Made by a program: the position numbers and the translations under genes | Part shown: positions 1 through 56,539 of the stretch, piece after piece | Numbering within the stretch: the stretch's first letter is position 1 | Layout: the number at the start of each line of letters is the position of its first letter | Notes under the pieces: generated by a model | Seen by the model: only the letters and a program-made list of their open reading frames with translations | Databases searched by the model: none | What the model was told of the DNA's origin: nothing | DNA from: Sphyrna mokarran | Lineage: Eukaryota | Reading direction: 5' to 3' | NCBI GenBank assembly: GCA_024679065.1 | Contig: JAGIQG010000019.1 | Location: 16,492,001-16,556,000, forward strand | DNA: 64,000 bases

Positions 1-405
1 CTGAAAACAAAACAAGTGGATGTGTTTCATCATGTAAATAGGCAGGGCTTAAACATGCTGGTAAAGTCTGGCTGCACTGAGATCAGAGTGACATGTTTAA
101 AGGATGTCCTAATCAGAGGAGAAAGTAACCTCCCCGTCTTCTTTATCTAGGTCTCCACTTCCTCTTCACCCTCCCATTCCTCTACCACAAACAGTGACAA
201 CATTCCTTCCCAGTATCATCATATTGGACCACAATCTTCAGAAAGAATCATCCACCCAAGTGGCTGCCACTGTCGTCCACAGCTCTCACACATTCCCCTC
301 CCTCACCCCCACCACCACAAATAAATGAATCCCACCCATATCTTCCATAAGGCTCTTACTAAGATCCAGCATTGTTCTTAGTTTGTCATGGTTTGGCTTT
401 GGCAT

Positions 406-2473: not shown

Positions 2474-2536
2474 AACAAACAACTTCAACAACAGTGCCAA
2501 CCAGCACATCTCAATCTACTGTCAGTTCAACAACTG
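2474..2536 (+). CDS. Mucin PTS micro-exon A1 (63 nt)
   Basis: ttcag|AACAAACA...ACAACTG|gtgagt; phase 1-1; EQTTSTTVPTSTSQSTVSSTT. Confidence 0.85.
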
Positions 2537-5500
2537 GTGAGTGACGTTTTCTATCAATGAGTATGGAAGATTAATTCCCTATTTCAGTACTTTCAATTAT
2601 AAAGTCAATGACATTCCATTTCAAGATTGTTCTTCTAATAGTTTTTTAAATAATGTATTGTAAATTTGTCCCTAATTTTTTTTTTTGTGTACGTTTGGCA
2701 CCAAACGTTGTCGTCTTTTGAAACTTCGTAAATGGTTTTCAGGAAATTGATCCAAATCTGAGACTTTGAACATCTTTAATATTTTTCAGAGTTAACAACC
2801 ACAACAGTGTCACCAACTACAACTGGCTCAACCACTGGCTCCACAACTGGTGAGTGAGTTTTCTTTCATTATACATTACAAGTTAAATACAAGCGGTTTC
2901 ATTACATTGTCAGTTCCTTGTCTGTGAAAGTCTGTTGCCTTTCTCTTTCAGTGTATTCTTCCATTCTAGCCAGAGGGCAGTGTTTATTGGCATCAATGTT
3001 GACCAAAGTTTTTGGTTTCATTTCAAAAGCCAGCAGAAAGCACAATCTTGATTCAATAAGTCACCCTGAAATCAACCTCTCCTCTCTTAGAAAGGAACTT
3101 CTACTGGTGACTAGATGTTTAACTAAATTAAACAAAACATTAAAGCACTTGGCACCAGTGTATTCAATTAAGGGGATATTCATTATTGAATATTGATTTG
3201 TAGAACTTGACGCATGGGAAACTTCTAGAGATCAGCATGCAGATAATTATTTATTGAATAACAGTGTAATCACTATTTTGTGCAGGGTATCACTGTGTTC
3301 TAGCCTGAATCCCCTTTTAAGCTTTCAATGTATTCTATTTGTCAATACAGTTTGAGACAATAAAGGGACACTAGAATCAGTGTTCCAAATTCAGTCTTTG
3401 ATACTCTTCCGATGGAGAGCTTGTCAGCGGCTACATGGAATACACAATGTATAAAATGACTTGCTAATATCCAATTGGGCCCCTGTAGGAAAAGGCTTTA
3501 ATCTTTTCTGCACATTCTCTCATGTGTATTCCCTGCTGCCTCATGTTCTAACTCTTTCAATACTGTCCTAGTTCAAATTGTGTGAACTAATTGTGAAAGT
3601 CTTTGTTTCCCTTCAGAAACATCAACTACATCAACAGAGACAACTAGCACAGCGACTACTGCCCTTTCCATACCTGGTAAGTTTTTTTTCCATTTTGTGG
3701 AATAATTAAAGCTAAGCACACAAAAAAAAAAATGTCCTGGACAGCGAAAATCCCTCTGTCAGCTTTGCTTGGTTCTTCGTATTCTCACACTAGAAAATAG
3801 GATTATAGAATTGTAGAATCTCTGCAGTGCAGTCAGAGTCCAGTTGGGCCTGCGCCAACAATAATACCACCCTATTGCCATAACCCCACTTATTTACTCT
3901 GCTAGTCCCTCTGACACTTATGCCTGAATTTTACCATCACACCTGCCCAAATCTTATAACATTGTGCCCGAGGCCAACAAGAATGCACTTCTGCAAACTT
4001 TCCCTGCCTGATTATTGGGACGGGCATGCCATTAAAACTTTGGCATTAGAATCTAGTTAGCTTGGCCAATCCATCTAATCTGCATGTCTTTGGACTGTGA
4101 AAGGAAACCAGAGTACCACGGAAACGTAAGCAGGTGTCGGGAGAACGTACAGACTCTGCACAGAAAAGTAACCCAAGGCTGGAATTGAACCTGGGTCCCT
4201 GGCACTGAGGTAGCACTGGTAACCAGATCTTAGTGTGCTTCTAAGAAAGGAAAGCACTGGAATGATGTCTGTCTTGGACGAGATGATCTGTCAGAACTTC
4301 TGCGCACACACTGGTGAAATGACAGTCGTTGCTGTGTTTTTTCAGTGATGAATTGTGTTCCCTCTTTAGGGTGCTGATTAACGTGTTCATGCTTGAAACA
4401 AAATCTAATCTGTCAGCACCAAGGTCAATATGTGCAGTGGCACCATGCTGCTGGCCTCCCAATCACTTGTCCCTCAGAATATACAACCTATAAAATAACA
4501 TGCTATAATACCAATTGGACATCTTTGGGAAAAGCTTTAATCTTTTCTGCACACTCCCTCTCACAACTGGTCAGTGCTGGTTTATAGCTGAAAATACTGA
4601 GTTTGGGAAAATAATCTTTAGTTCATTAAAAGAAAACTTCATTCACCTGTTGTGGTACTGATAGTAGAGACACATACAGTGGTGACCTTGAGGATAGCTA
4701 CCCACTTGATACCCAATCGATGCTGACGCAAAGGGCCAAGTGGCCTCCTTCTGTACTGGACCATTTCTCTAAATATGTAAGGATAACATGTCACTTGAAG
4801 GGAAACAAACACACTCTATATTGTGGCAGCAATTTGATTGGGGATCTGGGATTGGGGAAGATTTTTGAAACCTGTAGTGAAAGATATTAATTTGTGAAAT
4901 CATTGAAATTTCTATTGAACCTGTCTCAGTTCTGTTCCAATTCAAAATACTGTGTGATGGTTGTAAATAATTTCTCTCCTCTTTAGGAGAAACAATTTCA
5001 ACAACAGTGCCCACCACCACATCAGAGTCTACAACTGGTACCACAACTGGTGAGTGAAGTTTTCTATGAATGAATGTGAAAAATATTTTCCCAGGTTCAG
5101 TATTTTCCGTTAGCATCTGAATTACTTCTATTTAAACATCATTTCTGAATGATGCACTATTATTTTGCCCTTAATTACATTCTTTGATTTTACTTGGCAA
5201 AAGCCATTCTGTCTTGTATGAGATTGCAAAATATTTTTTAGGAATTTGGTCACAATTTTGTGACTTTGAACATCTTTAATTTTTTTCAGAGTTGACAAGT
5301 ACAGCAGTGTCACCAACAACTGGCTCAACCACTGGCTCCACAACTGGTGAGTGATTCCTCTTTCATTGTACATTGCAAGGATTTAGATACAAGCAGTTTT
5401 ATTACGTCGTCAGTTCCTTGTCTGAAAGCCTGTTGCCTTTCTCTCCTGGTGTATTCTTCCATTCCCGCCAGAGGGGCAGTGTTTATTGGCATCAGTATTT

Positions 5501-8500
5501 CTTTTTGATTTATTCCAAAAGCCAGCTGAGAGCACACACTTGATTGAAATAAATCTTAAAATCTGCCTCTCCTGTCCCAGCGTACAGTACATTATAAAGA
5601 GATAACTAGATTGTAAAACTAAATCAAAGATAACATGAAACCACTCAGCAACAGTGTATTCGGTTCAGGCGATGTTCGTCTTTGAATATTGAGCTGTGCA
5701 TCTTGATAAATGGGAAACTTCTCAAGATCGAGATCGAAATAGTTTACTGAATAACAGAGTAATCACTATTTTGTGCAGGGTATCATTGTGTTTGAGTCTG
5801 AATCCCTTTAAAGCTTTCAATATACTCTATCTATCAGTACGGTTTGAGACCATAAAGGGACACTGGAATCAGTGTTCCCAATTCAATCTTTCACAGTGAT
5901 AATCTTCTGATGAAGAGCATGTCAGGGTTCAGATGGAATACACTGTATATAAAATGAGATGCTAATATCCAATTGGGGCCCCTGTAAACAAAAAAATCTT
6001 TTTTGTTCATTTTCTCACGTCTTCTGTGCTGCCTCACCTTCTAACTCTTTCAATTCTATCCTGATTCACATTGTGTGAATTGATTGTGAAAGTTTGTTTT
6101 CCTCCAGAAACAACAACAACTGCATCAACAGAGACAACCAGCACAGCCACATCTACTGCCAGTTCCACATCTGGTAAGTGTTATCTTCTTTAATGAATGC
6201 TATTTCATCTTAAAACCCTGGTAGTGAAAACTCCTCTGTCAGCTTTACTGCGTTCCTCACATTCTCGCGTCACAAGATGGTGGGATCAGATCTACCTCCA
6301 GAGCCTTGTGTTTGGAATCCAGTTTGATCTTGTAGTGTCCTTCTGAGGAAGAAAAGCATTGTATTGATGTCTTGGCTACTGGATTAAATATTCCAGCTGG
6401 ATCTTGTGTCCACATGCCAGTAAAATAAAAGTTCTTACTGTGTTATTTCAAAGATGAGTTAAGATTTCCCTTTAAGATTCTGATCCATCTCTGCCCAAAT
6501 GGATTGATACTATACCCATTTCGAACATGACTGCACAACAATAATTCCCTGGTTGTCAAGCCTTTTGATTGTATCAGGCAGCAGATGAATTGAACATGTT
6601 TAATATTTGCAAACTCTCATTTAAATTATGGAATTTGCTGTAAGTTGGTCAATTCCCTCAAAACTTTCCATTCCAGTTGGATATATTGTTGTTTTTTTTT
6701 TTTGACCGTTTTTGCTTGTTCTTCTGTAGAATCAACAACCACAGGGACAAGCAGCACAACTGAGATGACTGCCAGCTCCACAACTGGTGAGGGATTCCTT
6801 CTTTCAATAAACATTTGGCAACTCTAACACAATTTTTTTATCCCTATTTCAGTATTTCCCCGCCCATGAAACATATTATTTCTTCCTGCTTGACACAAGA
6901 CTGTTTTTGATTGTGATTATTATCTTTCAGGAAGGACAACTGCAACAGTCTCACCAACTACAACTGGCTCGACTGGTAGCTCCACAACTGGTGAGTGCTG
7001 GTTTCTTCAGTGTATAATAGACACAAATGTTATTATTCACTCATCTCATTGACAGTAAATAACTATTTGTTTATGCTTCCAGCTCAAGGAAACAGGCTTT
7101 TGCATTATCTATTGAAAAATTCTTGTTTCGATTCGTTTAAAATTTAACAATAACTTCTATTGAGCAGATTTCATCAGCTTTATTCTTCATAAAAGGAGAA
7201 ATTCTGAAATTTCAGGCAGCAAGTCAGAGCATGCTAGACATCACCATGAATTATAACTTATGCGCTAGTGATGAGCTTCAGTGAATTCCAGTTCTAATCT
7301 GGATAATCAGGAATTATCTCCCAAAGCATCAGCACATATTGAGCTGTTGAATAACTGAGAGTAAGAGCTTAGTTGTCACATCCATAGTTCAATGTGTGCC
7401 ATTGTTGAATGAAGGATAATGTTGTGTTCTGACCTAAAGTTCCATTAGAAGCTCCATATTTATGAGTATTGTAAGAGTCAAAATTATCTTGGATGTGATT
7501 GTGCTCATTAGGGGCGATTTTACCAGGATTTGGCAAAGTGTCAGGATGTGAGAGTTGATCAGTTTTGCCTCCAGATCTCATGTCTGTGAAAACAAAACAA
7601 GTGGACGTGTTTCATATCTTTATGTAACTAGGCAGGGCTTAAACATGTCAGTAAAGTCTGGCTGCACGGAGATCGGAGTGACATGTTTAAAGCATGTCCT
7701 AGTCAGACCAGAAAGTAACCTCTCTGTCTTCTTTATCCAGGTCTCTGCCTCCTCTTCACGCCCCATTCCTCAACAACAAACACTGACAGCATTCCTTCCC
7801 AGAATCCAAGCTAGCACCCGTCCTCAAACTGCAATCAGAACCCACCCTTCCCACAAACTGGCAATGCTGGCACCTCCTCTCTTTGCTCCCAAACATCACC
7901 AGTATTGGACCACAATCCTCAGAGAGAATCATCCACCCAAATGGCTACCACTGTCATCCACAGCGCTCTCACATTCCGCTCCCTCAACCCCACCACCACA
8001 AATAAATAAATCCCACCCATATCTCCCATAAGGCTCTTACTAAGATCCAGCATTGGCACTGCCATGGTTGGGCATTGGCATGATGCCAATCTGGCAGTAC
8101 TAACCTGTGCCAGGTTCACATCTAGGTGAACCTGTTGTAAACGTCATTGAGATTTGAAACTATGGTTAGAGGTTAATCCATGATGGGGTGGGAGAATTCA
8201 ATGGTATGAAAATAAATTCAAATGTATTGAACTGAGGTTCACGCTCATGATGGGAGTGAACATGATTACATCAGCGCGGGATGGCGGAAATCAGAAATCA
8301 TGATCTGTGTTCTGGTTGTAAATAATTTCTCTCCTCTTCAGAACAAACAACTTCAACAACAGTGCCAACCAGCACATCTCAATCTACCGTCAGTTCAACA
8401 ACTGGTGAGTGAAGTTTTCTATCAATGAACATGGAAGATTATTTCCCTATTTCAGTACTTTCAATTATAAAGTCAGTGGCATTCCATTTCAAGATGGTTC

Positions 8501-11500
8501 TTCTAATAGTTTTTTAAATAATGTATTGTAAATTTGTCCCTAATTTTTTTTGTGTTGATTTGGCACAAAACATTGTCGTCTTTTGAAACTTCATAAATAG
8601 TTTTCAGGAAAGTGATCCAAATTCTGTGACTTTGAACATCTTAAATATTTTTCAGAGTTAACAACCACAACAGTGCCACCAACTACAACTGGATCAACCA
8701 CTGGCTCCACAACTGGTGAGTGAGTTTTCTTTCATTATACATTACAAGCACTTAAATACATGCGTTTCATTACATTGTCAGTTCCTTGTCTGTGAAAGTC
8801 TGTTGCCTTTCTCTTTCAGTGTATTCTTCCATTCTAGCCAGAGGGCAGTGTTTATTGGCATCAATGTTGACCAAAGTTTTTGGTTTCATTTCAAAAGCCA
8901 GCAGAAAGCACAATCTTGATTCAATAAGTCACCCTGAAATCAACCTCTCCTCTCTTAGAACGTAACTTCTACTGGTGACTAGATGTTTAACTAAATTAAA
9001 CAAAACATTAAAGCACTTGGCACCAGTGTATTCAATTAAGGGGATATTCATTATTGAATATTGATTTGTAGAACCTAACGCATGGGAAACTTCTGGAGAT
9101 CAGCATGCAGATCATTATTTATTGAATAACAGTGTAATCACTATTTTGTGCAGGGTATCACTGTGTTCTAGCCTGAATCCCCTTTTAAGCTTTCAATGTA
9201 TTCTATTTGTCAATACAGTTTGAGACAATAAAGGGACACTAGAATCAGTGTTCCAAATTCAGTCTTTGATACTCTTCCGATGGAGAGCTTGTCAGTGGTT
9301 ACATGGAAACACAATGTATAAAATAACTTGCTAATATTGAATTGGGCCCTTGTAGGAAAAGGATTTAATCTTTTCTGCTCATTCCCTCATGTATTCCCTG
9401 CTGCCTCATGTTCTAACTCTTTCAATACTGTCCTAGTTCAAATCGTGTGAACTAATTGTGAAAGTCTTTGTTTCCCTTCAGAAACATCAACTACATCAAC
9501 AGAGACAACTAGCACAGTGACTACTGCCCTTTCTATACCTGGTAAGTTTTTTCCATTTTGTGGAATAATTAAAGCTAAGCATGCAAAAAAAAAATGTCCT
9601 GGACAGCGAAAACCCCTCTGTCAGCTTTGCTTGGTTCTTCGTATTCTCACACTAGAAAATAGGATTATAGAATTGTAGAATCTCTGCAGTGCAGTCAGAG
9701 TCCAGTTGGGCCTGCGCCAACAATAATACCACCCTACTGCCATAACCCCACTTATTTACTCTGCTAGTCCCTCTGACACTTATGCCTGAATTTTACCATC
9801 ACACCTGCCCAAATCTTATAACATTGTGCCCGAGGCCAACAAGAATGCACTTCTGCAAACTTTCCCTGCCTGATTATTGGGACGGGCATGCCATTAAAAC
9901 TTTGGCATTAGAATCTAGTTAGCTTGGCCAATCCATCTAATCTGCATGTCTTTGGACTGTGAAAGGAAACCAGAGTACCAAGGAAACGTAAGCAGGTGTC
10001 CGGAGAAGTACAGACTCTGCACAGAAAAGTGACCCAAGGCTGGAATTGAACCTGGGTCCCTGGCACTGAGGTAGCACTGGTAACCAGATCTTACAGTGTG
10101 CATCTAAGAAAGGAAAGCACTGGAATGATGTCTGTCTTGGATGAGATGATCTGTCGGGAACGTCTGCGCACACACTGGTGAAATGACAGTTGTTGCTGTG
10201 TTTTTTCAGTTATGAATTGTGTTCTCTCTTTAGGGTGCTGATTAATGTGTTCATGCTTGAAACAAAATCTAATCTGTCAGCACCAAGGTTAATATGTGCA
10301 GTGGCACCATGCTGCTGGCCTCCCAATCACTTGTCCCTCAGAATATACAACCTATAAAATAACATGCTATAATACCAATTGGGCATCTTTGGGAAAGGCT
10401 TTAATCTTTTCTACACACTCCCTCTCACAACTGGTCAGTGCTGGTTTATAGCTGAAAATACTGAGTTTGGGAAAATAATCTTTAGTTCATTAAAAGAAAA
10501 CTTCATTCACCTGTTGTGGTACTGATAGTAGAGACACATGCAGTGGTGACCTTGAGGATAGCTACCCACTTGATACCCAATCGATGCTGACGCAAAGGGC
10601 CAAGAGGCCTCCTTCTGTACTGGACCATTTCTCTAAATATGTAAGGATAACATGTCACTTGAATGGAAACAAACGCACTCTATTATGGCAGTAATTTGAT
10701 TGGGGATCTGGGATTGGGGAAGATTTTTGAAACCTGTAGTGAAAGATATTAATTTGTGAAATCATTGAAATTTCTATTGAACCTGTCTCAGTTCTGTTCC
10801 AATTCAAAATACTGTGTGATGGTTGTAAATAATTTCTCTCCTCTTCAGGAGAAACAATTTCAACAACAGTGCCCACCATCACATCAGAATCTACTGCTCA
10901 TTCCACAACTGGTGAGTGAGGTTTCCTATTAATGAATGTGAAAGATATTTTCCCAGGTTCAATATTTTCAGCTAGAATCTGAATTACTTCTATTTAAACA
11001 TCATTTCTGAATGATGCACTATTATTTTGCCCTTAATTACATTCTTTGATTTTACTTGGCAAAAGCCATTCTGTCTTGTATGAAATTGCAAAATATTTTT
11101 TTGGAATTTGGTCACAATTTTGTGACTTTGAACATCTTTAATTTTTTTTCAGAGTTGACAAGTACAGCAGTGTCACCAACAACTGGCTCAACCACTGGCT
11201 CCACAACTGGTGAGTGATTCCTCTTTCATTGTACATTGCAAGGATTTAGATACAAGCAGTTTTATTACGTCGTCAGTTCCTTGTCTGTGAAAGTCTGTTG
11301 CCTTCTCTCCTGGTGTATTCTTCCATTCCTGCCAGAGGCAGTATTTATTGGCATCAGTATTTCTTTTTGATTTATTCCAAAAGCCAGCTGAGAGCACACA
11401 CTTGATTGAAATAAATCTTAAAATCTGCCTCTCCTGTCCCAGCGTACAGTATATTATAAAGAGATAACTAGATTGTAAAACTAAATCAAAGATAACATGA

Positions 11501-14500
11501 AACCACTCAGCAACAGTGTATTCGGTTCAGGTGATGTTCGTCTTTGAATATTGAGCTGTGCATCTTGATAAATGGGAAACTTCTCAATATCGAGATCGAA
11601 ATAGTTTACTGAATAACAGAGTAATCATTATTTTGTGCAGGGTATCATTGTGTTTGAGTCTGAATCCCTTTAAAGCTTTCAATACATTCTATCTATCAGT
11701 ACGGTTTGAGACCATAAAGGGACACTGGAATCAGTGTTCCCAATTCAATCTTTCACAGTGATAATCTTCTGATGAAGAGCATGTCAGGGTTCAGATGGAA
11801 TACACTGTATATAAAATGAGATGCTAATATCCAATTGGGGCCCCTGTAAAAGAAAAAAATCTTTTTTGTTCATTTTCTCACGTCTTCTGTGCTGCCTCAC
11901 CTTCTAACTCTTTCAATTCTATCCTGATTCACATTGTGTGAATTGACTGTGAAAGTTTGTTTTCCTCCAGAAACAACAACAACTGCATCAACAGAGACAA
12001 CCAGCACAGCCACATCTACTGCCAGTTCCACATCTGGTAAGTGTTATCTTCTTTAATGAATGCTATTTCATCTTAAAGCCCTGGTAGTGAAAACTCCTCT
12101 GTCAGCTTTACTGCGTTCCTCACATTCTCGCATCACAAGATGGTGGGATCAGATCCATCTCCAGAGCCTTGTGTTTGGAATCCAGTTTGATCTTGTAGTG
12201 TCCTTCTGAGGAAGAAAAGCATTGTATTGATGTCTTGGCTACTGGATTAAATATTCCAGCTGGATCTTGTGTCCACATGCCAGTAAAATAAAAGTTCTTA
12301 CTGTGTTATTTCAAAGATGAGTTAAGATTTCCCTTTAAGATTCAGATCAATTCTGATCCATCTCTGCCCAAATGAATTAATACTATACCCATTTCGAACA
12401 TGACTGCACAACAATAGTTCCTTGGTTGTCAAGCCTTTTGATTGTATCAGGCAGCAGATGAATTGAACACATTTAATATTTGCAAACTCTCATTTAAATT
12501 ATGGAATTTGCTGTAAGTTGGTCAATTCCATCAAAACTTTCCATTCCAGTTGGATATTTTTTTTTTTGACCGTTTTGCTTGTTCTTCTGTAGAATCAACA
12601 ACCACAGGGACAAGCAGCACAACTGAGATGACTGCCAGCTCCACAACTGGTAAGGGATTCCTTCTTTCAATAAACATTTGGCAACTCTAACACAATTTTT
12701 TTTTAGTCCCTATTTCAGTATTTCCCCGCCCATGAAACACATTATTTCTTCCTGCTTGACACGAGACTGTTTTTGATTGTGATTATTATCTTTCAGAAAG
12801 GACAATTGCAACAGTATCACCAACTACAACTGGCTCGATCGGTAGCTCCACAACTGGTGAGTGCTGGTTTCTTCAGTGTATAATAGACACAAATGTTATT
12901 TTTCAGTCATCACATTGACAGTAAATAACTATTTGTTTATGCTTCCAGCTCAAGGAAACAGGCTTTTGCATTATCTATTGAAAAATTCTTGTTTCGATTT
13001 GTTTAAAATTTAACAATAACTTCTATTGAGCAGATTTCATCAGCTTTATTCTTCATAAAAGGAGAAATTCTGAAATTTCAGGCAGCAAGTCAGAGCATGC
13101 TAGACATCACCATGAATTATAACTTATGCGCTAGTGATGAGCTTCAGTGAATTCCAGTTCTAATCTGGATAATCAGGAATTATCTCCCAAAGCATCAGCA
13201 CATATTGAGCTGTTGAATAACTGAGAGTAAGAGCTTAGTTGTCACATCCATAGTTCAATGTGTGCTATTGTTGAATGAAGGATAATGTTGTGTTCTGACC
13301 TAAAGTTCCATTAGAAGCTCCATATTTATGAGTATTGTAAGAGTCAAAATTATCTTGGATGTGATTGTGCTCATTAGGGGCGATTTTACCAGGATTTGGC
13401 AAAGTGTCAGGATGTGAGAGTTGATCAGTTTTGCCTCCAGATCTCATGTCTGTGAAAACAAAACAAGTGGACGTGTTTCATATCTTTATGTAACTAGGCA
13501 GGGCTTAAACATGTCAGTAAAGTCTGGCTGCACGGAGATCGGAGTGACATGTTTAAAGCATGTCCTAGTCAGACCAGAAAGTAACCTCTCTGTCTTCTTT
13601 ATCTAGGTCTCTGCCTCCTCTTCACGCCCCATTCCTCAACAACAAACACTGACAGCATTCCTTCCCAGAATCGAAGCTAGCACCCGTCCTCAAACTGCAA
13701 TCTGAACCCACCCTTCCCACAAACTGGCAATGCTGGCACCTCCTCTCTTTGCTCCCAAACATCACCAGTATTGGACCACAATCCTCAGAGAGAATCATCC
13801 ACCCAAATGGCTACCACTGTCATCCACAGCGCTCTCACATTCCGCTCCCTCAACCCCACCACCACAAATAAATAAATCCCACCCATATCTCCCATAAGGC
13901 TCTTACTAAGATCCAGCATTGGCACTGCCATGGTTGGGCATTGGCATGATGCCAATCTGGCAGTACTAACCTGTGCCAGGTTCACATCTAGGTGAACCTG
14001 TTGTAAACGTCATTGAGATTTGAAACTATGGTTAGAGGTTAATCCATGATGGGGTGGGAGAATTCAATGGTATGAAAATATATTCAAATGTATTGAACTG
14101 AGGTTCACGCTCATGATGGGAGTGAACATGATTACATCAGCGCGGGATGGCGGAAATCAGAAATCATGATCTGTGTTCTGGTTGTAAATAATTTCTCTCC
14201 TCTTCAGAACAAACAACTTCAACAACAGTGCCAACCAGCACATCTCAATCTACCGTCAGTTCAACAACTGGTGAGTGAAGTTTTCTATCAATGAACATGG
14301 AAGATTATTTCCCTATTTCAGTACTTTCAATTATAAAGTCAGTGGCATTCCATTTCAAGATGGTTCTTCTAATAGTTTTTTAAATAATGTATTGTAAATT
14401 TGTCCCTAATTTTTTTTGTGTTGATTTGGCACAAAACATTGTCGTCTTTTGAAACTTCATAAATGGTTTTCAGGAAAGTGATCCAAATTCTGTGACTTTG

Positions 14501-17500: not shown

Positions 17501-20500
17501 TTTTGTGCAGGGTATCATTGTGTTTGAGTCTGAATCCCTTTAAAGCTTTCAATATACTCTATCTATCAGTACGGTTTGAGACCATAAAGGGACACTGGAA
17601 TCAGTGTTCCCAATTCAATCTTTCACAGTGATAATCTTCTGATGAAGAGCATGTCAGGGTTCAGATGGAATACACCGTATATAAAATGAGATGCTAATAT
17701 CCAATTGGGGCCCCTGTAAAAAAAAAGAAAAATATTTTTTGCTCATTTTCTCATGTCTTCTGTGCTGCCTCACCTTCTAACTCTTTCAATTCTATCCTGA
17801 TTCACATTGTGAGAGTTGACTGTGAAAGTTTGTTTTCCTCCAGAAACAACAACAACTGCATCAACAGAGACAACCAGCACAGCCACATCTACTGCCAGTT
17901 CCACATCTGGTAAGTGTTATCTTCTTTAATGAATGCTATTTCATCTTAAAGCCCTGGTAGTGAAAACTCCTCTGTCAGCTTTACTGCGTTCCTCACATTC
18001 TCGCATCACAAGATGGTGGGATCAGATCCATCTCCAGAGCCTTGTGTTTGGAATCCAGTTTGATCTTGTAGTGTCCTTCTGAGGAAGAAAAGCATTGTAT
18101 TGATGTCTTGGCTACTGGATTAAATATTCCAGCTGGATCTTGTGTCCACATGCCAGTAAAATAAAAGTTCTTACTGTGTTATTTCAAAGATGAGTTAAGA
18201 TTTCCCTTTAAGATTCTGATCAATTCTGATCCATCTCTGCCCAAATGAATTAATACTATACCCATTTCGAACATGACTGCACAACAATAATTCCCTGGTT
18301 GTCAAGCCTTTTGATCTTATCAGGCAGCAGATGAATTGAACACATTTAATATTTGCAAACTCTCATTTAAATTATGGAATTTGCTGTAAGTTGCTCAATT
18401 CCATCAAAACTTTCCATTCCAGTTGGATATATATTTTTTTGATCGTTTTGCTTGTTCTTCTGTACAATCAACAACCACAGGGACAAGCAGCACAACTGAG
18501 ATGACTGCCAGTTCCTCAACTGGTGAGGGATTCCTTCTTTCAATAAACATTTGGCAACTCTAACACAATTTTTTTTTTTAATCCCTATCTCAGTATTTCC
18601 CCGCCCATGAAACACATTATTTCTTACTGCTTGACACGAGACTGTTTTTGATTGTGATTATTATCTTTCAGAAAGGACAATTGCAACAGTATCACCAACT
18701 ACAACTGGCTCGATCGGTAGCTCCACAACTGGTGAGTGCTGGTTTCTTCAGTGTATAATAGACACAAATGTTATTTTTCAGTCATCACATTGATAGTAAA
18801 TAACTATTCGTTTATGCTTCCAGCTCAAGGAAATAGGCTTTTGCATTATCTATTGAAAAATTCTTGTTTTGATTAGTTTAAAATTTAACAATAACTTCTA
18901 TTGAGCAGATTTCATCAGCTTTATTCTTCATAAAAGGAGAAATTCTGAAATTTCAGGCAGCAAGTCAGAGCATGCTAGACATCACCATGAATTATAACTT
19001 ATGCGCTAGTGATGAGCTTCAGTGAATTCCAGTTCTAATCTGGATAATCAGGAATTATCTCCCAAAGCATCAGCACATATTGAGCTGTTGAATAACTGAG
19101 AGTAAGAGCTTAGTTGTCACATCCATAGTTCAATGTGTGCCATTGTTGAATGAAGGATAATATTGTGTTCTGACCTAAAGTTCCATTAGAAGCTCCATAT
19201 TTATGAGTATTGTAAGAGTCAAAATTATCTTGGATGTGATTGTGCTCATTAGGGGCGATTTTACCAGGATTTGGCAAAGTGTCAGGATGTGAGAGTTGAT
19301 CAGTTTTGCCTCCAGATCTCATGTCTGTGAAAACAAAACAAGTGGATGTGTTTCATATCTTTATGTAACTAGGCAGGGCTTAAACATGTCAGTAAAGTCT
19401 GGCTGCACGGAGATCGGAGTGACATGTTTAAAGCATGTCCTAGTCAGACCAGAAAGTAACCTCTCTGTCTTCTTTATCTAGGTCTCTGCCTCCTCTTCAC
19501 GCCCCATTCCTCAACAACAAACACTGACAGCATTCCTTCCCAGAATCGAAGCTAGCACCCGTCCTCAAACTGCAATCAGAACCCACCCTTCCCACAAACT
19601 GGCAATGCTGGCACCTCCTCTCTTTGCTCCCAAACATCACCAGTATTGGACCACAATCCTCAGAGAGAATCATCCACCCAAATGGCTACCACTGTCATCC
19701 ACAGCTCTCACACATTCCGCTCCCTCAACCCCACCACCACAAATAAATAAATCCCACCCATATCTCCCATAAGGCTCTTACTAAGATCCAGCATTGGCAC
19801 TGCCATGGTTGGGCATTGGCATGATGCCAATCTGGCAGTACTAACCTGTGCCAGGTTCACATCTAGGTGAACCTGTTGTAAACGTCATTGAGATTTGAAA
19901 CTATGGTTAGAGGTTAATCCATGATGGGGTGGGAGAATTCAATGGTATGAAAATATATTCAAATGTATTGAACTGAGGTTCACGCTCATGATGGGAGTGA
20001 ACATGATTACATCAGCGCGGGATGGCGGAAATCAGAAATCATGATCTGTGTTCTGGTTGTAAATAATTTCTCTCCTCTTCAGAACAAACAACTTCAACAA
20101 CAGTGCCAACCAGCACATCTCAATCTACCGTCAGTTCAACAACTGGTGAGTGAAGTTTTCTATCAATGAACATGGAAGATTATTTCCCTATTTCAGTACT
20201 TTCAATTATAAAGTCAGTGGCATTCCATTTCAAGATGGTTCTTCTAATAGTTTTTTAAATAATGTATTGTAAATTTGTCCCTAATTTTTTTTGTGTTGAT
20301 TTGGCACAAAACATTGTCGTCTTTTGAAACTTCATAAATGGTTTTCAGGAAAGTGATCCAAATTCTGTGACTTTGAACATCTTAAATATTTTTCAGAGTT
20401 AACAACCACAACAGTGCCACCAACTACAACTGGATCAACCACTGGCTCCACAACTGGTGAGTGAGTTTTCTTTCATTATACATTACAAGCACTTAAATAC

Positions 20501-23500
20501 ATGCGTTTCATTACATTGTCAGTTCCTTGTCTGTGAAAGTCTGTTGCCTTTCTCTTTCAGAGTATTCTTCCATTCTAGCCAGAGGGCAGTGTTTATTGGC
20601 ATCAATGTTGACCAAAGTTTTTGGTTTCATTTCAAAAGCCAGCAGAAAGCACAATCTTGATTCAATAAGTCACCCTGAAATCAACCTCTCCTCTCTTAGA
20701 ACGTAACTTCTACTGGTGACTAGATGTTTAACTAAATTAAACAAACCATTAAAGCACTTGGCACCAGTGTATTCAATTAAGGGGATATTCATTACTGAAT
20801 ATTGATTTGTAGAACTTGAGACATGGGAAACTTCTAGAGATCTTAATGCAGATAATTATTTATTGAATAACAGTGTAATCACTATTTTGTGCAGAGTATT
20901 ATTGTGTTGTGGCCTGAATCTTGTTTTAAGTTTTCAATGTATTCTATTTATCAACACAGTTTGAGACAATAAAGGGACACTGGAATCAGTGTTCCAAATT
21001 CAGTCTTTGATACTCTTCCGATGGAGAGCTTGTCAGTGGTTACATGGAATACACAATGTATAATATAACTTGCTAATATTGAATTGGGCCCCTGTAGGGA
21101 AAGGATTTAATCTTTTCTGCTCATTCTCTCATGTATTCCCTGCTGCCTCATGTTCTAACTCTTTCAATACTGTCCTAGTTCAAATTGTGTGAACTAATTG
21201 TGAAAGTCTTTGTTTCCCTTCAGAAACATCAACTACATCAACAGAGACAACTAGCACAGCCACTTCTACTGCCCTTTCCACACCTGGTAAGTTTTTTTTT
21301 TCCATTTTGTGGAATAATTAAAGCTAAGCACGCAAAAAAAAAAAATGTCCTGGACAGCGAAAACCCCTCTGTCAGCTTTGCTTGGTTCTTCGTATTCTCA
21401 CACTAGAAAATAGGATTATAGAATTGTAGAATCTCTGCAGTGCAGTAGGAGGCCAGTTAGGCCTGCGCCAACAATAATACCACCCTATTGCCATAACCCC
21501 ACTTATTTACTCTGCTAGTCCCTCTGACACTTATGCCTGAATTTTACCATCACACCTGCCCAAATCTTGTAACATTGTGCCCAAGGCCAACAAGAATGCA
21601 CTTCTGCAAACTTTCCCTGCCTGATTATTGGGACGGGCATGCCATTAAAGCTTTGGCATTAGAATCTCGTTAGCTTGGCCAATCCATCTAATCTGCATGT
21701 CTTTGGACTGTGAAAGGAAACCAGAGTACCAAGGAAATGTAAGCAGGTGTTGGGAGAACATACAGACTCTTCACAGAAAAGTGACCCAAGGCTGGAATTG
21801 AACCTGGGTCCCTGGCACTGAGGTAGCACTGGTAACTAGCTCTTAGTGTCCTTCTAAGAAAGGAAAGCACTGGAATGATGTCTGTCTTGGATGAGATGAT
21901 CTGTCGGGAACGTCTGCGCACACACTGGTGAAATGACAGTTGTTGCTGTGTTTTTTCAGTGATGAATTGTGTTCCCTCTTTAGGGTGCTGATTAATGTGT
22001 TCATGCTTGAAACAAAATCTAATCTGTCAGCACCAAGGTCATTACATGCAGTGGCATTACGCTGCTGGCCTCCCAATCACTTGTCCCTCCGAATATACAA
22101 CCTATAAAATAACATGCTATAATATCCAATTGGGCATCTTTGGGAAAGGCTTTAATCTTTTCTGCACACTCCCTCTCAGTGTTGGTTTATAGCTGAAAAT
22201 ACTGAGTTTGGGAAAATAATCTTTAGTTCATTAAAAGAAAACTTCATTCACCTGTTGTGGTACTGATAGTAGAGACACATGCAGTGGTGACCTTGAGGAT
22301 AGCTACCCACTTGATACCTAATCAATGCTGACGCAAAGGGCCAAGTGGCCTCCTTCTGTACTGGACTATTTCTTTGAATATGTAAGGATAACATGTCACT
22401 TGAATGGAAACAAACACACTCTATATTGTGGCAGTAATTTGATTGGGGAAGAGTTTTGAAACCTGTAGTGAAAGACATTAATTTGTGAAATCATTGAAAT
22501 TTCTATTGAACCTGTCTCAGTTCTGTTCCAATTCAAAATTCTGTGTGATGGTTGTAAATAATTTCTCTCCTCTTCAGGAGAAACAATTTCAACAACGGTG
22601 CCCACCACATCAGAGTCTACAACTGGTGAGTGAAGTTTTCTATTAATGAATGTGAAAAATATTTTCCCAGGTTCAGTATTTTCCGTTAGCATCTGAATTA
22701 CTTCTATTTAAACATCATTTCTGAATGATGCACTATTATTTTGCCCTTAATTACATTCTTTGATTTTACTTGGCAAAAGCCATTCTGTCTTGTATGAAAT
22801 TGCAAAATGTTTTTTTAGGAATTTGGTCACAATTCTGTGGCTTTGTGATTTTGAGCATCTTTAATATTTTTCAGAGTTGACAAGTACAACAGTGTCACCA
22901 ACAACAACTGGCTCAATAACTAGTGAGTGATTTCTCTTTCATTATACATTGCAAGGATTTAGACACAAGCAGTTTTATTACATCGTCAGTTCCTTGTCTG
23001 AAATTTTGTTGCCTTCTCTCCTGGTGTATTCTTCCATTCCCGTCAGAGGGCAGTGTTTATTGGCATCAGTATTTCTTTTTGATTTATTCGAAAAGACAGC
23101 TGAGAGCACACACTTGATTGAAATAAATCTTAAAACCTGCCTCTCCTGTCTCAGCGTACAGAACATTATAAAGAGATAATTAGATTGTAAAACTAAATCG
23201 AAGATAACATGAAACCACTCGGCAACAGTGTATTCATTTCAGGTGATGTTCATCTTTGAATGTTGAGCTGTACATCTTGATAAATGGGAAACTTCTCGAG
23301 ATCAAAATGCAGGTAGTAGTTTATTGAATAACACAGTAATCACTATTCTGTGCAGGGTATCATTGTGTTCGAGTCTGAATCTCCTTTAAAGTTTTCAATA
23401 TATTTTATCTGTCAGTACAGTTTGAGACCATAAAGGAAGACTGGAATCAGTGTACCCAATTCAATCTTTCATTGTGATACTCTTCTGTTGGAGAGCTTAT

Positions 23501-26500
23501 CAGGGTTCAGATGTAATACACAATGTATAAAATGAGATGCTAAAATCCAATTGGAGCCCCTGTTTTAAAAAAAAAAGCTTTAATCTTTTTTGCTCTTTCT
23601 CTCTCATGTATTCCGTGCTGCCTCACCTTCTAACTCTTTCAATACTATCCTGATTCAAATTGTGAGAGTTGACTGTGAAAGTTTGTTTTCCTCCAGAAAC
23701 AACAACAACTGCATCAACAGAGACAACCAGCACAGCCACTTCTACTGCCAGTTCCACACCGGGTAAGAGTTGTCTTCTTTAAGGAAAGTAAGAATGCTAT
23801 TTCATCTTAAAGCCCTGGTAGTGAAAACTCTTCTGTTATCTTTACTGCGTTCCTCACATTCTCGCATCACAAGATGATGGGATCAGATCTACCTCCAGAG
23901 CCTTCTGTTTGGGATCCAGTTTGATCTTGTAGTGTCCTTCTGAGGAAGGAAAGCATTGTATTGATCTCTTGGCTACTGGATTAGATATTACAGCAGGATC
24001 TTGTGTGCACACGCCAGTAAAATAAAAGTTCTTACTGTGTTATTTCAAAGATGAGTTAAGATTCTGATCAATTCTGATCCATCTCTGCCCAAATGGATTG
24101 ATACTATACCCATTTTGAACATGACTGCACAACAATAGTTCCTTGGTTGTCGAGCCTTTTGATCGTATCAGGCAGTAGATGAATTGAACACATTTAATAT
24201 TTGCAAACTCTCATTTAAATTATGGATTTTGCTGTAAGTTGGTCAATTCCATCAAAACTTTCCATTCCAGTTGGATATATTATTTTCTTGACCGTTTTGC
24301 TTGTTCATCTGTAGAATCAACAACAACAACAGGAACAAGGACCATAACTGAGATGACTGCCAGTTCCACAGCTGGTGAGGGATTCCTTCTTTCAATAAAC
24401 ATTTAGCAACTCTAACACAATTTTTTTTATCCCCATTTCAGTATTTCCCCGCCCATGAAGCATATTATTTCTTCCTGCTTGATGCGAGACTGTTTTTGAT
24501 TGTGATTATTATCTTTCAGAAAGGACAATTGCAACAGTGTCACCAACTACAACTGGCTCGATCGGTAGCTCCACAACTGGTGAGTGCTGGTTTCTTCAGT
24601 GTATAATAGACACAAATGTTATTTTTCAGTCATCACATTGATAGTAAATAACTATTCGTTTATGCTTCCAGCTCAAGGAAACAGGCTTTTGCATTATCTA
24701 TTGAAAAATTCTTGTTTTGATTCGTTTAAAATTTAACAATAACTTCTATTGAGCAGATTTCATCAGCTTTTATTCTTCATAAAAGGAGAAATTCTGAAAT
24801 TTCAGGCAGCAAGTCAGAGCATGCTAGACATCACCATGAATTATAACTTATGCGCTAGTGATGAGCTTCAGTGAATTCCAGTTCTAATCTGGATAATCAG
24901 GAATTATCTCCCAAAGCATCAGCACATATTGAGCTGTTGAATAACTGAGAGTAAGAGCTTAGTTGTCACATCCATATTTCAATGTGTGCCATTGTTGAAT
25001 GAAGGATAATATTGTGTTCTGACCTAAAGTTCCATTAGAAGCTCCATGTTTATGAGTATTTTAAGAGTCAAAATTATCTTGTCTCATGTCTCTGAAAACA
25101 AAACAAGTGGACGTGTTTCATATCTTTATGTAAACAAGCAGGGCTTAAACATGCCGGTAAATTCTGGCTGCATTGAAATAGGAGTGACGTGTTTAAAGGA
25201 CGTGTCCTAATCAGAGGAGAAAGTAACCTCCCCGTCTTCTTTATCTAGGTCTCCGCTTCCTCTTCACCCTCCGATTCCTCTACCATAAATAGTGACAGCA
25301 TTCCTTCCCAGGATCCGAGCTAGCACCCCTCCTCCAAACTGCAATCAGAATCCAATCTTCCATCCAACTGGGAATTTGGCACCCTCCTTTCTTTGTTTGC
25401 TGCCGAACATCACCAGTATCGGACCACCATTCTCAGAAAGAACCATCCACCCAAACTGCTACCACTGTCATCCACAGCTCTCATACGTTCCTCTCGCTCA
25501 CCCCCACTACCATAAATAAATGAATCCCACCCATATCTTCCATAAGGCTTTTACTAAGATCCAGCTTTGGCACTGCCATGGTTTGGCATGGGCATGATGC
25601 CAATCTGGCAGTACTAACCTGTGCCAGGTTCACATCTTGGTGAACCTGTTGTAAACATCATCGAGATTTGAAATTATGGTGAGGGGTTAATCCATGATGG
25701 GGTGGGAGAATTCAATGGTATGAAAGTATATTGAACTGAGGTTCACGCCCATGATGGGGGTGAACATGAATACATCATCAGCGTGGGATGGTGAAAATCA
25801 GAAATCATGATCTGTGTTTTGGTTGTAAATAATTTCTCTCCTGTTCAGAACAAACAACTTCAACAACAGTGCCAACCAGCACATCTGAGTCTACTGCCCG
25901 TTCCACCACTGGTGAGTGAAGTTTTCTATCAATGAATATGGAGAATTATTTCAGTACTTTCAATTATAAAGTTAATGACATTCCATTTCAAGATTGTTCT
26001 TCTAATAGCTTTTTAAATAATGCATTGTAAATTTATCCCTTTTTTTGTGTGTGTTGATTTGGCACAAAACATTGTCGTCTTTTGAAAATTCATAAATAGC
26101 TTTCAGGAAATTGATCCAAATTCTGTGACTTTGAACATCTTTAATATTTTTCAGAGTTAACAACCACAACAGTGCCACCAACTACAACAATTGGCTCAAC
26201 CACTGGCTCCACAACTGGTGAGTGCTAGTTTCTTCAGTGTAAAATAGCAAGGCATCAGACACAAGTGTTATTTTTCATATCCAGTTTATTGACAGTGACA
26301 GTCCATTCCTTTACACTTCTAGTAACTTAACCTCTGTCCTCAAGCAGGAAAAGACTATTTGATTAGCTATTTCGGAAATCTGGTTTTGATTTATTTAAAT
26401 TATAATGGTAAAACTTCCTTTAATACTGACCATTGAGGTCAGACACTTTGGCTGGGATTCTCTCAGAAAAAAATCTGGTCCAACATATGGAAAAGCTGGA

Positions 26501-29500
26501 AAAATGTCCGCCGTTTTTTTAGGCAAACTTACCAGAGCGAATGCTCAACGCTCTGAACGCTGCCAAGTGACTCAGTGTGATTCTCCCTAGAAAATAGGGG
26601 GCAGGGCCGATTCCCACCTGAGAGGCCAACAGCATAGTGCTGAGTGGGCTTCTGTGCATATATCATTCTATCAGTGTGGAGATTGGCACATGTGCAGAGG
26701 CTCTCCCCACCCACCTATTGCTGACCTCCCGATCGTTGGCCTACCGACCCCCTATAATTCTACAAAACTGTGAATCTGTAGTGGAAAGCTTGCCATTCGT
26801 GTAGAAGGAAAAGCCTTTTATATTGTGGAGAATTCACCAGCTGGAAATCGGTGAAAGAATTTTCAAACTTGTAGTGAGTTTTAATTTAATGCACTTTTAA
26901 TTTGTGTAATAATTAATATTTCTTTTGAAACTGCCACAACACTATTCCAATTCAAAATTCTGTGCTGTGATTGTAAGTAAATTCTCTCCTCTTCAGAAAA
27001 AACAACTTCAACAACAGTGCCCACCACCACATCTCTGTCTACCGCCAGTTCCACAATTGGTGAGTCAAGTTTTCTATCGATGAACATTTTCCTTCCTTCA
27101 TTCAGTATTTTTAGCTATAAACTCAATTACTTCCTCCTTCAATATCTTTCTCTTTTTCGTTTTTGACTAATGTATAATCATTTTATCTCAATGCAAGTAG
27201 ATTGTCATCTTGTGAAAGTCTATTTAAACACATTTAGGAATTACATTGGAGAACTGTAATTTTGAATATTATTAATTGTTTTCAGAGGTAACAACTACAA
27301 CAGTGCCACCAATTACAACTGGCTCCACTAGTGGTACCACAACTAGTAAGTGATGGTTTTTTCATTATATAATGACAAGGTGTTACAGGTGAAAGAGGTA
27401 AACTTATATAATGCAGGATCCTCTCTGAATGGTCACTTCTTGTAACAGTTTTCAAACCCTTTCGAGAACTCTTTGAATTTGTCTTTTAGTTTGTGATTCT
27501 GTTGGAACTGTCTCAATATGATCCTGATCACAATTATTCTGTATTATTTTGATTGTCTTCAGAAGAAACAACAGTGACATCTAGGCTGACTACTGCTAGT
27601 TCTACAACTGGTGAGTGAGGTCATCTATTCATGAACATGAAACATTCTCCGAACTGTTTCAATTCTTTCTCTGCTTCAACCCAATTACTCCTTGTTTGAG
27701 CACTTTGGCCTTTGTATTGTTTGAGTGATGCACTATTGTTTGACTGATGTATTGTAAATTTGCACTTATTAGCATATACTTACCCAGCACAAGTCACATC
27801 ATCATACAGTGAAATTACATAATTATGAATTGTCAGAATGTTTGATTTTTGAATATCTTCACTGTTTTCCAGAAGAAACAACAACAGTTTCACTAACAAC
27901 AACAACAACTGGCTCAACCATTGGCACCACAACTGGTGAGTAATGTCTTTTTCTCATTCTACACTAGGAACAACTTTAAAATAAGGCACTCTTTTCAACT
28001 TCAGCTCCCTCTCAATAGAAGCTTATCACTCCATTTTGTTCATGCCTGATCCATTCCTTCTGAAAGAGGTAATGTAAAACTACACTCGATGAGGGCGATT
28101 CTCCCATCCCGCAAGTGTTTTTGAAGCAGGGGGATGGGAGAATCGTGTGATGGCCATTTTGCAGGGTTCGCGCATGAGTTCCCGATGCATGCACGTCTCC
28201 TGAACCAGAGAGTGGTTGCAGTCGATACCGCACTAGAAACCGGTGGGAAGAGAGGTAAGTGATTTTAATCTGTTTTAAATGTCATTATTGGGCCCAGCAC
28301 AGAACTTGCCAGATCTGACAGCATCTCCCACCTTGCCAGGAGTATTTCACCCCAGAGGGGGTTAGAGTATCTCCCTATGTGTGGAACTGTCTGGAGATCC
28401 TGCTGGAGTGAAGGGGGCAATTACACCCCCCCCCACCCCACGCATGGGGGAGTTCAGAGGGCAGGGAGTGGTGCTCCCTGTTCAGGAGCATCCTGGCAGT
28501 GCCAGCCTATGCCCTAACACTGCCCAAGAGGCAAAGTGTCCATGCCAAGGGGGACACCAGACATTGAGCAGTGCCAAGGGAGCAAAGTTTTAGGGGGTGG
28601 TTGGTGGGGGTCCCATTGCCACTGTGCATGGGGATTGGTCTGGGCAGGAGGGAGGCCAGTGATTGGAGTGAGCTGGGGAGGGTCTGCCCCCTCCTGTTGT
28701 GGGGAGGGGGGAGGGGAGGTGTCTTCTGCAGTGGGGGAGAATCGCCACTGCTGTATTGGGGTGGGCTGGACATCGGGGCGCTCCTGGACGTGGGTGGGGA
28801 TGGTTGGAGCTCGCCCAGGAATTGTCATGGGGGCTGCGATTGGCCATGAGAAGGCGCTGGAAAGGCAGCAGTGTGAGGGTCTCGGGCTGGCCAGCAATTG
28901 AGCTGGTCAGCAATGGGAAGACTGTCTGATCGGAGCCACTGCGCATACGCAGAGTTCTAGAACAGTCAAACACGGGCGCAAATAGGCCCTATCCCTCCCT
29001 GGGTTGTTAACGATATTCACGATTGGGATCTCTGTGTTGCACAGAGTGCAGAGATTCGAGTCTGAAGCTGCACTGAATAAACAGTTGTGATCTAGACTAG
29101 CTTTTCTGCCAATTCAGCACTTGCGCTTGCTCCCCCGTATTTCATCGTCATTTTTGCTGAACTGGTGTAGTTTCCACTTATGTTGATACACCGCAAGAAC
29201 AGCAAAGGAATTGTGTTGGTTACCTTGTTAATCTTGTACTATAACAATGATTCTACACCTGGTGTCAAGATTTACTGTGTGCTCTGTATAACACGAGAAA
29301 TATGGGCACAGGTTTTGCCGTGCAGTTCATGGCAATCACTTGAAATGTACACATCCGCCCATGCCATTTTCAATACAAACGTCCATGTTACCCTTGCGCA
29401 TTCCCTTACTGCTCTCTCGTCCCTCTCTTTGAGTGCTCTGACTGGTCGCTGCAGCATGGTTGGCAGAATGCTGCTGAGATTCAGTGGAAGAGTTGGTCTT

Positions 29501-53901: not shown

Positions 53902-53951
53902 AAAGTGTTGCATTCAGAACTAGTCAACTGAAATTGCTTGAAATTAAATAT

Positions 53952-54006
53952 AAGAAATAACTTGAAGTTGAGCTGAATTGAAATTCTCAACTTCAAGCTA
54001 TTTCTT
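53952..54006 (+). other. 3'UTR inverted repeat: 21-bp stem, 13-nt loop
   Basis: aagaaataacttgaagttgag / ctcaacttcaagctatttctt; 20 of 21 Watson-Crick pairs. Confidence 0.85.
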
Positions 54007-54143
54007 TTTCTTTACAGTGTCTATTTGATTTGCTTTTATTTGGTGGTAATAAGTTTCGATACACCATTTACCCATAACTACTCTGATAGTATGTCTTCTG
54101 TGTCTTGCAATTTTTTCACCTTTTAATGCATGGGGAAATAATT

Positions 54144-54149
54144 AATAAA
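54144..54149 (+). terminator. Polyadenylation signal AATAAA of the mucin gene
   Basis: Canonical AATAAA ~240 nt after the stop, with T/GT-rich sequence downstream. Confidence 0.7.
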
Positions 54150-55929: not shown

Positions 55930-56535
55930 GGTGAGCATTCAAACAGCCAGCACGATCTATGGTGTGCACTGCCAATGCAAACTGAAGGAATCAGTTTCTC
56001 ATCTTCCAAGAAGGCACTGGCAGCCTTCCAGTCTCAACATTGTTCAGATGATTTCTTCTACCCCACCTCAATCTATTTGTTTTCATTCTATTTTTTTTAG
56101 CTGTTCTCTACTTTTTATTTCCTTTATTGTTTTTCTTCCCCTCCATTTTATCCTTCTTTCCTTACCTTTGCTTCCCCTTTTTCTCCATTTTATCTCTCTC
56201 CCACCCACCTCCCTCTCTCCCCACATCTTCATCTGTCGCAGCTTACCTTCTGATTTTAGATTCTCTGCTGTGCGGCCATTCACATCCTTTATTCCCTCTA
56301 TGGACTGCCATTAGTAGTCTTTCCCCATGGTTTCTGTGGCTATAATTCATCTTTCATTCCCTCACCCTGCAGTATAAATATCTCCCACTTTCCTATGCCT
56401 TTGAGCTTTGACAAAAAGTTTCCAGGTCCAGATGACATCAGCTCTTTTCTCTCCTTGCAGATGCTGTGGACCTGCTGAGATTTTCTACTATTTTCTCTTT
56501 TGGTTTCAGATTCCAGTGTCTGCAGTAATTTGATT
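55930..56535 (+). mobile_element. Penelope-like element terminal region (probable)
   Basis: Pyrimidine-rich tract, cagtataaata, then cagatgctg..gacctgctgag..ttttc...tttcagattccag..tctgcagta, recalled as typical of elasmobranch Penelope ends. Confidence 0.5.
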
Positions 56536-56539
56536 TCAT

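Follow-up and report, generated by a model that had tools for sequence, protein, structure and literature searches.

A tandem array of short Thr/Ser exons forms the predicted stalk region of an elasmobranch gel-forming mucin gene probably allied to mucin-19-like proteins

The 64,000-nucleotide stretch of contig JAGIQG010000019.1 of Sphyrna mokarran analyzed here (the window, to which all positions refer) carries a long series of short Thr/Ser-coding exons followed by exons of a gel-forming mucin gene, which raises the question whether the length of the mucin stalk is set by the choice of exons during splicing or by the number of exon copies in the genome. A first-pass annotation had proposed that both act together. 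Our analysis rather points, with a fair measure of confidence, to the 3′ part of an elasmobranch gel-forming mucin gene allied to the mucin-19/spiggin-like group, in which the stalk is encoded by an exon-level tandem array that changes its length mainly by unequal crossing-over and whose exons are mostly included constitutively.

Between 2474 and 27935, 38 Thr/Ser-coding exon slots were found on the plus strand. Their lengths are 48, 57, 60, 63 or 66 nt, that is, multiples of three without exception, and all 38 are phase 1-1, which confirmed the exon count of at least 38, the lengths and the phases first reported for this region. Canonical AG/GT borders are present in 37 of the 38, the exception being slot 23, whose acceptor reads AC for AG. 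The coding frame is free of stops in every slot, the other two frames contain stops in 17 and 15 slots, and the longest stop-free frame across the whole interval is 159 aa, that is, there is no single large exon for the proline/threonine/serine-rich (PTS) region. A scan for AG..GT-bounded Thr/Ser-rich frames returned 45 plus-strand candidate rows, which reduced to the 38 slots, and none on the minus strand. When 2224–28000 was scanned by splice signals only (42–69 nt, with no filter for Thr/Ser content or frame), 45 matches were obtained, and all 37 of them with a length divisible by three were array exons; the minus strand gave one match and 30 Markov controls gave 2–19 matches of any length. 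A profile search with the exons detected 49 matches, the 38 slots at 42 bits or more and 11 others at 19 bits or less, thus no decayed plus-strand copies were overlooked. Weak profile matches on the minus strand near 4640, 10504, 16373, and 22245 were discarded as chance matches.

Altogether 26 of the 38 exon sequences are distinct, and the array introns are 144–1,351 nt long. The last base of the exons is G in 36 cases and A in two, consequently none of the 741 possible forward junctions between array exons creates a stop. As the phases also fit, the earlier claim that any subset splices in frame onto the CysD exon was upheld. Microexons are defined by a limit of 27 nt or, in a loose sense, 51 nt; no array exon is within the former and only 3 of 38 are within the latter. 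The array exons are short exons, and the term “micro-exon” used before is too loose a label for them. Slot 23 contains a cryptic AG, in frame and 15 nt into the exon, which would give a 42-nt exon at 18481–18522, so this slot is either skipped or shortened in frame, although its dead acceptor could be a single-base assembly error. Six exons (ending at 2849, 8715, 10911, 14581, 20456, and 27610) are followed by a second consensus-like donor 4 nt downstream, which would shift the frame if used.

Self-comparison of the window revealed a tandem block of approximately 5.87 kb, present four times between 2224 and 25081 at 93–96% identity, as expected of the recently duplicated eight-exon block proposed earlier, and older repeats of approximately 75% identity inside the blocks. 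The array is invisible to Tandem Repeats Finder (6 short rows; the period is above 500). Alignments of exons with their flanks sorted the modules into four families (X, Y, Z, and W), which follow each other in the order X-Y-Z-X-Y-Z-W-Y in a unit. The 486 coding nt of about 5,870 previously given for a unit hold for units 1–3 (5,866–5,875 nt), while unit 4 has 468 of 5,766 nt. Introns diverged by 2.3–5.9% between units (117–296 intronic differences per unit pair). The four units can be paired in three conflicting ways, each backed by informative sites (46, 16, and 9), and private changes gather at the outer edges, with 28 in the first 500 columns of unit 1 and 61 in the last bin of unit 4. Such conflicting partitions and edge-piled private changes appear to fit unequal crossing-over and conversion. 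Since the beginning of the window matches the intron that closes each unit, the array continues in the 5′ direction; its remainder, like the N-terminal exons, is situated upstream of the window. A dispersed repeat has inserted into the intron before slot 1.

Downstream of the array, 13 exons between 31236 and 53901 have consistent phases and encode 665 aa with a single terminal stop; joined to the 37 canonical modules they form one open frame of 1,408 aa. The stalk consists of 46% Thr and 20% Ser (Thr+Ser 66.5% over 742 aa, the PTS criterion being at least 40%) and 4.6% Pro, slightly below the usual 5%. Pfam placed CysD, VWD, and C8 above its cut-off. TIL scored below it, and so did the Cys_knot matches of the single exons, as this domain is divided between two of them. 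Judged by these domains and frames, the window is predicted to hold the 3′ part of an intact gel-forming mucin gene with a VWD-C8-TIL-CK tail, and the earlier reading of an elasmobranch gel-forming mucin with one module per exon was borne out. Each exon of about 60 nt represents one Thr/Ser module. A mechanism can be proposed in which the X, Y, Z, and W modules were multiplied along with the adjoining introns, initially in pairs and triplets and more recently in the form of the 5.87-kb eight-exon block. The length of the array would change mainly through unequal crossing-over, with exon skipping possible. By analogy with established mucin biology, the stalk would be O-glycosylated and the protein would polymerize via its VWD and CK domains.

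The use of the exons is supported by the substitution pattern. One AG/GT substitution was seen in contrast to 15.2 expected under neutrality (P = 4e-6, from the tree lengths of flanking introns, for 36 of the 38 exons; alignment error may inflate the expected count). In the comparison of exonic and intronic indel lengths, proposed earlier as a check, indels between units are in frame in 5 of 5 exonic and 7 of 46 intronic cases (p = 3.4e-4). Selection on the splice dinucleotides and the in-frame indels thus indicate that the exons are used. In ten older, partly overlapping paralogue pairs the exons differ by 16.5% and the introns by 28–31%, and AG/GT changed at 0 of 40 positions. Some observations point the other way. 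The in-frame exonic indels may in part reflect triplet slippage rather than selection, and between the recent units the exons are no more conserved than the introns (31 of 462 and 358 of 5,010 variable columns, respectively). The dN/dS values of 0.52 and 0.68, which come from few changes in non-independent pairs, count together with this equal variability against strong constraint at the protein level.

The possibility that the array is an assembly artefact or a non-coding repeat merely looking exonic can be regarded as largely refuted and very improbable. Large, nearly identical tandem units are a recognized assembly hazard and the dead acceptor of slot 23 could be a base error, but the 117–296 intronic differences per unit pair, the selection on splice sites and frame, the lack of decayed plus-strand copies, and the same modules in an independently assembled species, Mustelus asterias, are at odds with it. 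Phase symmetry seems to be a precondition for the survival of any tandem duplication of a coding exon and, being required of every duplicated coding exon that persists, it is no sign of skipping. Weak splice sites and conserved intronic flanks are the hallmarks of cassette exons, and the array has neither. Its donors match the consensus at a mean of 7.4 of 9 positions compared with 6.3 for the 12 C-terminal donors (the array copies being non-independent, which weakens this comparison), pyrimidine tracts are ordinary (0.75 vs. 0.74), and divergence in the flanks 21–60 nt upstream and 7–60 nt downstream is 28%, similar to that of distant intron (29–31%), conservation ending within approximately 20 nt. 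Thus, what stood of the term “cassette” is the symmetric, frame-preserving structure of the exons; the splice-site and flank hallmarks did not. The annotations of related genes weigh against mostly constitutive inclusion: the RefSeq cluster of the Mustelus orthologue has 49 member sequences and the label X11, labels of Scyliorhinus paralogues reach X39, and three shark RefSeq isoform pairs (paralogues) differ by in-frame module blocks of 20–540 aa, as skipping would give. However, the breakpoints lie between nearly identical repeats, where mis-mapping of short reads probably creates false skips. Bird MUC2 models (P0186/P0187 and P0327/P0341, numbered up to X50) likewise show in-frame differences of PTS blocks, so sharks are not alone in having inflated isoform numbers where the PTS region is split.

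If the exons were regulated cassettes combined as in the PEVK region of titin, tissues would pick subsets of modules and thereby set mucin length and glycan load. The frame neutrality of every subset, the absence of stops at the junctions, the many RefSeq isoforms of the orthologue and paralogues, and the module-block differences in the compared pairs are compatible with this, and the idea has been put forward for chicken Muc13 and is established for titin (PMC1552070; 10.1101/411959; these and the other publications are cited from the accessible parts of their text). We nevertheless consider it improbable: the donors are strong, the pyrimidine tracts ordinary and the intronic flanks unconserved, only 26 of 38 exons are distinct and the introns are 94–98% identical between units, which would leave little to address single exons, the RefSeq breakpoints are of the kind prone to false skips, and infection brought about no massive change in the splicing of chicken MUC2 (PMC3549977). 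Unregulated, stochastic skipping, which would yield a length-polydisperse mucin from one allele in addition to genomic copy-number change, draws support from the short exons, the intron lengths of 144–1,351 nt, the tolerance of frame and junctions, the loss of one acceptor without frame loss, the isoform-rich annotations, and Xenopus FIM-C.1, which is described as polymorphic through splicing. The near-consensus donors and the strong selection that keeps the splice sites make this alternative rather unlikely, too. A broader proposal, namely a Muc19-lineage family that expanded in sharks and rays, kept CysD and VWD4, is mislabelled as mucin-2/5AC-like and uses splice-selectable modules as a titin-like dial for tissue- or condition-specific lengths, seems unlikely as a whole. 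Growth by unequal crossing-over with mostly constitutive inclusion stays the preferred explanation; it is in keeping with two other multi-exon mucins, Xenopus Otogl and chicken MUC2, for which a dominant product was seen by long-range reverse transcription PCR or northern blotting.

The orthologue was identified as P0172, isoform X11 of M. asterias LOC144507913 (a RefSeq model), which is 86% identical over the 665-aa tail; the next-best relatives are at 37–53%. It was reached via a VWD-exon search, local comparison, and a named search; a first search for homologues, starting from the CysD exon, yielded 1 match among 180 candidates and was uninformative. With the C-terminal 785 aa of the orthologue as query, neither a closer relative nor a second isoform cluster was found among the best 120 of 375 matches. 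Known as a protein model only, LOC144507913 has one CysD and matches to 4 VWD, 4 C8, and 3 TIL; the part of the Sphyrna gene that would encode the three N-terminal VWD-C8-TIL units of gel-forming mucins lies upstream of the window. The Mustelus stalk can be divided into 59 segments, of which 58 are clear X/Y/Z/W modules, but in a five- to seven-module higher-order pattern unlike the eight-exon unit of the window. The last six modules are colinear with slots 33–38 (25849–27935). This parse means that module types are conserved while their number and higher-order arrangement turn over between species, and the orthologue comparison proposed at the outset thus gave the same modules in a different order. 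Glu is the first residue in 56 of the 59 segments, which fits the phase-1 junction but, the parse having been seeded on five residue types, lends weak support.

Proteins of Hypanus, Hemitrygon, and Leucoraja join the window and Mustelus sequences at 100/99 in the C-terminal tree and are probable batoid orthologues. In two stingray orthologues, P0020 and P0268, a Ser/Gly/Lys/Glu-rich repeat of approximately 120–160 aa is inserted in the last C8 region. At least four paralogous shark/ray mucin groups, labelled mucin-2-, mucin-5AC-, or mucin-6-like and having 0–15 CysD domains, fall into one clade, and the longest contig has the same length for paralogues of one species, which suggests a genomic cluster. 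GDPH is the cleavage motif of MUC2-type mucins; at the corresponding start of VWD4 (34851–34880, plus strand) the window gene reads GNDH. The same change is present in Mustelus, GDPH is absent from the batoid orthologues, and several paralogues kept it.

The comparison with MUC2 and MUC5 drawn in the first-pass annotation was not supported by the phylogenetic analysis. In the N-terminal trees (55-row FastTree and 30-row IQ-TREE, in which the Mustelus orthologue represents the window gene), the elasmobranch sequences all fall into a single clade, separate from MUC2 and MUC5, whose sister group is teleost mucin-19(-like) proteins, seven of them at 100/100 in the 30-row IQ-TREE. Approximately unbiased (AU) tests on the 30 rows (model LG+G4, as in IQ-TREE) rejected a clade with MUC2 (p = 1.3e-5), MUC5 (1.5e-5), or both (1.2e-36). 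A 29-row C-terminal tree that included the window protein agreed, with 100/100 for the grouping with five teleost mucin-19(-like) proteins; one outgroup had been dropped for short alignment and the other drew a long-branch warning. These trees place the gene, as far as its sequence can tell, with the teleost mucin-19-like proteins and not in the MUC2/MUC5 lineage. Weighing against this are the long teleost branch (0.84) and the composition of the set, from which mammalian MUC19, spiggins, any MUC6, and true shark MUC2/MUC5 were absent. Database names of mucins are unreliable. Traits of the MUC2/MUC5 type are present in the gene (a fourth VWD-C8-TIL unit and CysD, by Pfam). CysD is described as typical of MUC2/MUC5 (PMC4948705, PMC2180178, PMC4989455) and was found in none of four teleost proteins checked. 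Lang et al. 2016 (PMC4948705) reported that the elephant shark has three Muc19 paralogues and that some spiggins possess a fourth VWD, and a 2026 dogfish study lists muc19, with no paralogue specified in its accessible text, as a marker of skin mucosal cells.

Concerning the architecture, the closest precedent is chicken Muc13 (PMC1552070, 2006), which also has one exon per 20-aa PTS repeat, with at least 12 repeats and expressed-sequence-tag support; zebrafish Muc13 is multi-exonic, too, and the authors proposed that splicing controls length. The earlier statement that multi-exon PTS regions are not new in principle is therefore correct. Chicken Muc13 is a transmembrane SEA mucin with nearly identical repeats, whereas the shark gene appears to encode a secreted-type VWD/CK mucin and comprises no fewer than 38 exons of four module types, with an eight-exon block as higher-order unit. 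Xenopus tropicalis Otogl/MucXS (PMC5789918) is a gel-forming mucin of the skin whose central domain of 34 PTS repeats is multi-exonic and for which long-range reverse transcription PCR gave a dominant product, but its PTS repeats alternate with 39 Cys-rich repeats, it has no typical CysD, and a fourth VWD is not described in the accessible text. Of the Muc19/spiggin lineage, the teleost mucin-19(-like) proteins are the sister group in the N- and C-terminal trees, and some spiggins have PTS and a fourth VWD; spiggin tandem duplication and splice variants are documented (PMC4948705, PMC2180178, PMC4989455). Unlike the teleost mucin-19-like proteins checked, the shark gene has CysD, and mammalian Muc19 lacks VWD4.

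Chicken MUC2 (PMC3549977), cited earlier as a precedent, is one as to its multi-exon PTS region with CysD, but its repeat is 69 aa, its PTS exons are mostly 178–869 nt, and a single splice variant was characterized beside a dominant product, with no large splicing change on infection. Four C-terminal exon sizes (184, 179, 70, and 32 nt) are identical in chicken MUC2 and the shark gene, although the AU test assigns them to different lineages. The PTS region of human MUC2, 5AC, 5B, and 6 is in one exon (PMC9712336), which agrees with the single large exon assumed earlier for the first three, while MUC19 could not be confirmed as a multi-exon precedent, a 2026 preprint giving an uninterrupted central exon in the longest human isoform. 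Splicing of repeat exons is ascribed to Xenopus FIM-C.1 in the passage available; for FIM-B.1, named before, it was unconfirmed. Outside mucins, titin PEVK has many short repeated exons that expand and contract by duplication in a length-setting region, and tuning at isoform level is demonstrated there (10.1101/411959), whereas for the shark gene such tuning is a proposal. No description of a split-exon stalk in sharks was found in the full-text literature, whose coverage leaves out most subscription journals and, for one search, comprised 25 of 1,150 papers, and the word “exon” is absent from a shark skin proteomics paper. Thus, the architecture is a large, clean instance of a design already published, here in a lineage for which no description was found.

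In 2006 the work on chicken Muc13 raised the question whether splicing sets mucin length within an individual, and the literature seen has left it unsettled. Having 38 or more frame-neutral modules, of which 26 have distinct sequences, the shark locus is suited to a test of it. The lineage result may matter more to specialists than the exon layout. Most of the shark and ray “mucin-2-like” and “mucin-5AC-like” proteins retrieved form their own clade beside the teleost mucin-19-like proteins, combining CysD with VWD4, which is relevant to the question of how the gel-forming mucins of vertebrates were originally laid out and to the naming of matches in shark mucus proteomics.

Coordinates of the array, of the downstream mucin exons and of associated features in the window
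Feature	Position	Strand	Remarks
Intron remnant of further upstream repeat unit	1-405	+	83-89% identical to the intron that follows exon 8 of every unit
Unit 1, eight Thr/Ser exons	2474-2536 (X), 2790-2849 (Y), 3617-3676 (Z), 4987-5049 (X), 5290-5346 (Y), 6108-6173 (Z), 6730-6786 (W), 6931-6990 (Y)	+	
Unit 2, eight Thr/Ser exons	8342-8404, 8656-8715, 9482-9541, 10849-10911, 11153-11209, 11971-12036, 12593-12649, 12797-12856	+	
Unit 3, eight Thr/Ser exons	14208-14270, 14522-14581, 15349-15408, 16720-16782, 17023-17079, 17844-17909, 18466-18522 (dead acceptor), 18672-18731	+	
Slot 23	18466-18522	+	acceptor AG -> AC
Unit 4, eight Thr/Ser exons	20083-20145, 20397-20456, 21224-21286, 22578-22625, 22875-22922, 23697-23762, 24315-24374, 24520-24579	+	
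Six older terminal Thr/Ser exons	25849-25911, 26155-26217, 26997-27059, 27286-27345, 27563-27610, 27873-27935	+	
CysD exon, short Thr/Ser tail, phase 1-0	31236-31618	+	Pfam Mucin2_WxxW E=3e-15; 92% identical to orthologue
Cys-rich exon before VWD4, phase 0-1	34582-34753	+	
VWD4 first exon	34849-35081	+	Pfam VWD E=2e-16
VWD4 second exon, 184 nt	38861-39044	+	size of chicken MUC2 exon 49
End of VWD4 and linker	40169-40382	+	
C8 exon, 179 nt	44150-44328	+	Pfam C8 E=7e-10; size of chicken MUC2 exon 51
TIL-region exons	48273-48342 (70 nt), 48496-48602, 48721-48752 (32 nt)	+	Pfam TIL E=0.001, below cut-off; 70 and 32 nt are the sizes of chicken MUC2 exons 53 and 55
Cys-rich exons, VWC-like by position	49236-49346, 51314-51365	+	first without Pfam match
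Cystine-knot exons	51976-52078, 53742-53901 (stop 53899-53901)	+	Pfam Cys_knot E=0.004, 1e-4, below cut-off
Likely polyadenylation signal	54144-54149	+	

Besides the known exons, twelve mucin/otogelin queries matched a single intronic remnant in the window and no further paralogue; no neighbouring gene was recognized in 53900–64000, and an Rfam scan of the window gave 0 matches. The remnant (40737–40860, plus strand) is a decayed, frameshifted partial copy of exon 40169–40382 in the following intron, 50–56% identical to the orthologue at the amino acid level, and is a failed duplication of a non-symmetric exon. Dispersed repeats common to the window are located at 407–2223, 37378–37770, 42669–43545, 59789–60102, and 63280–64000. 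The last contains, at 63280–63999, a 240-aa open frame without a Pfam match, which we take to resemble the end of the reverse-transcriptase open reading frame of a long interspersed nuclear element.

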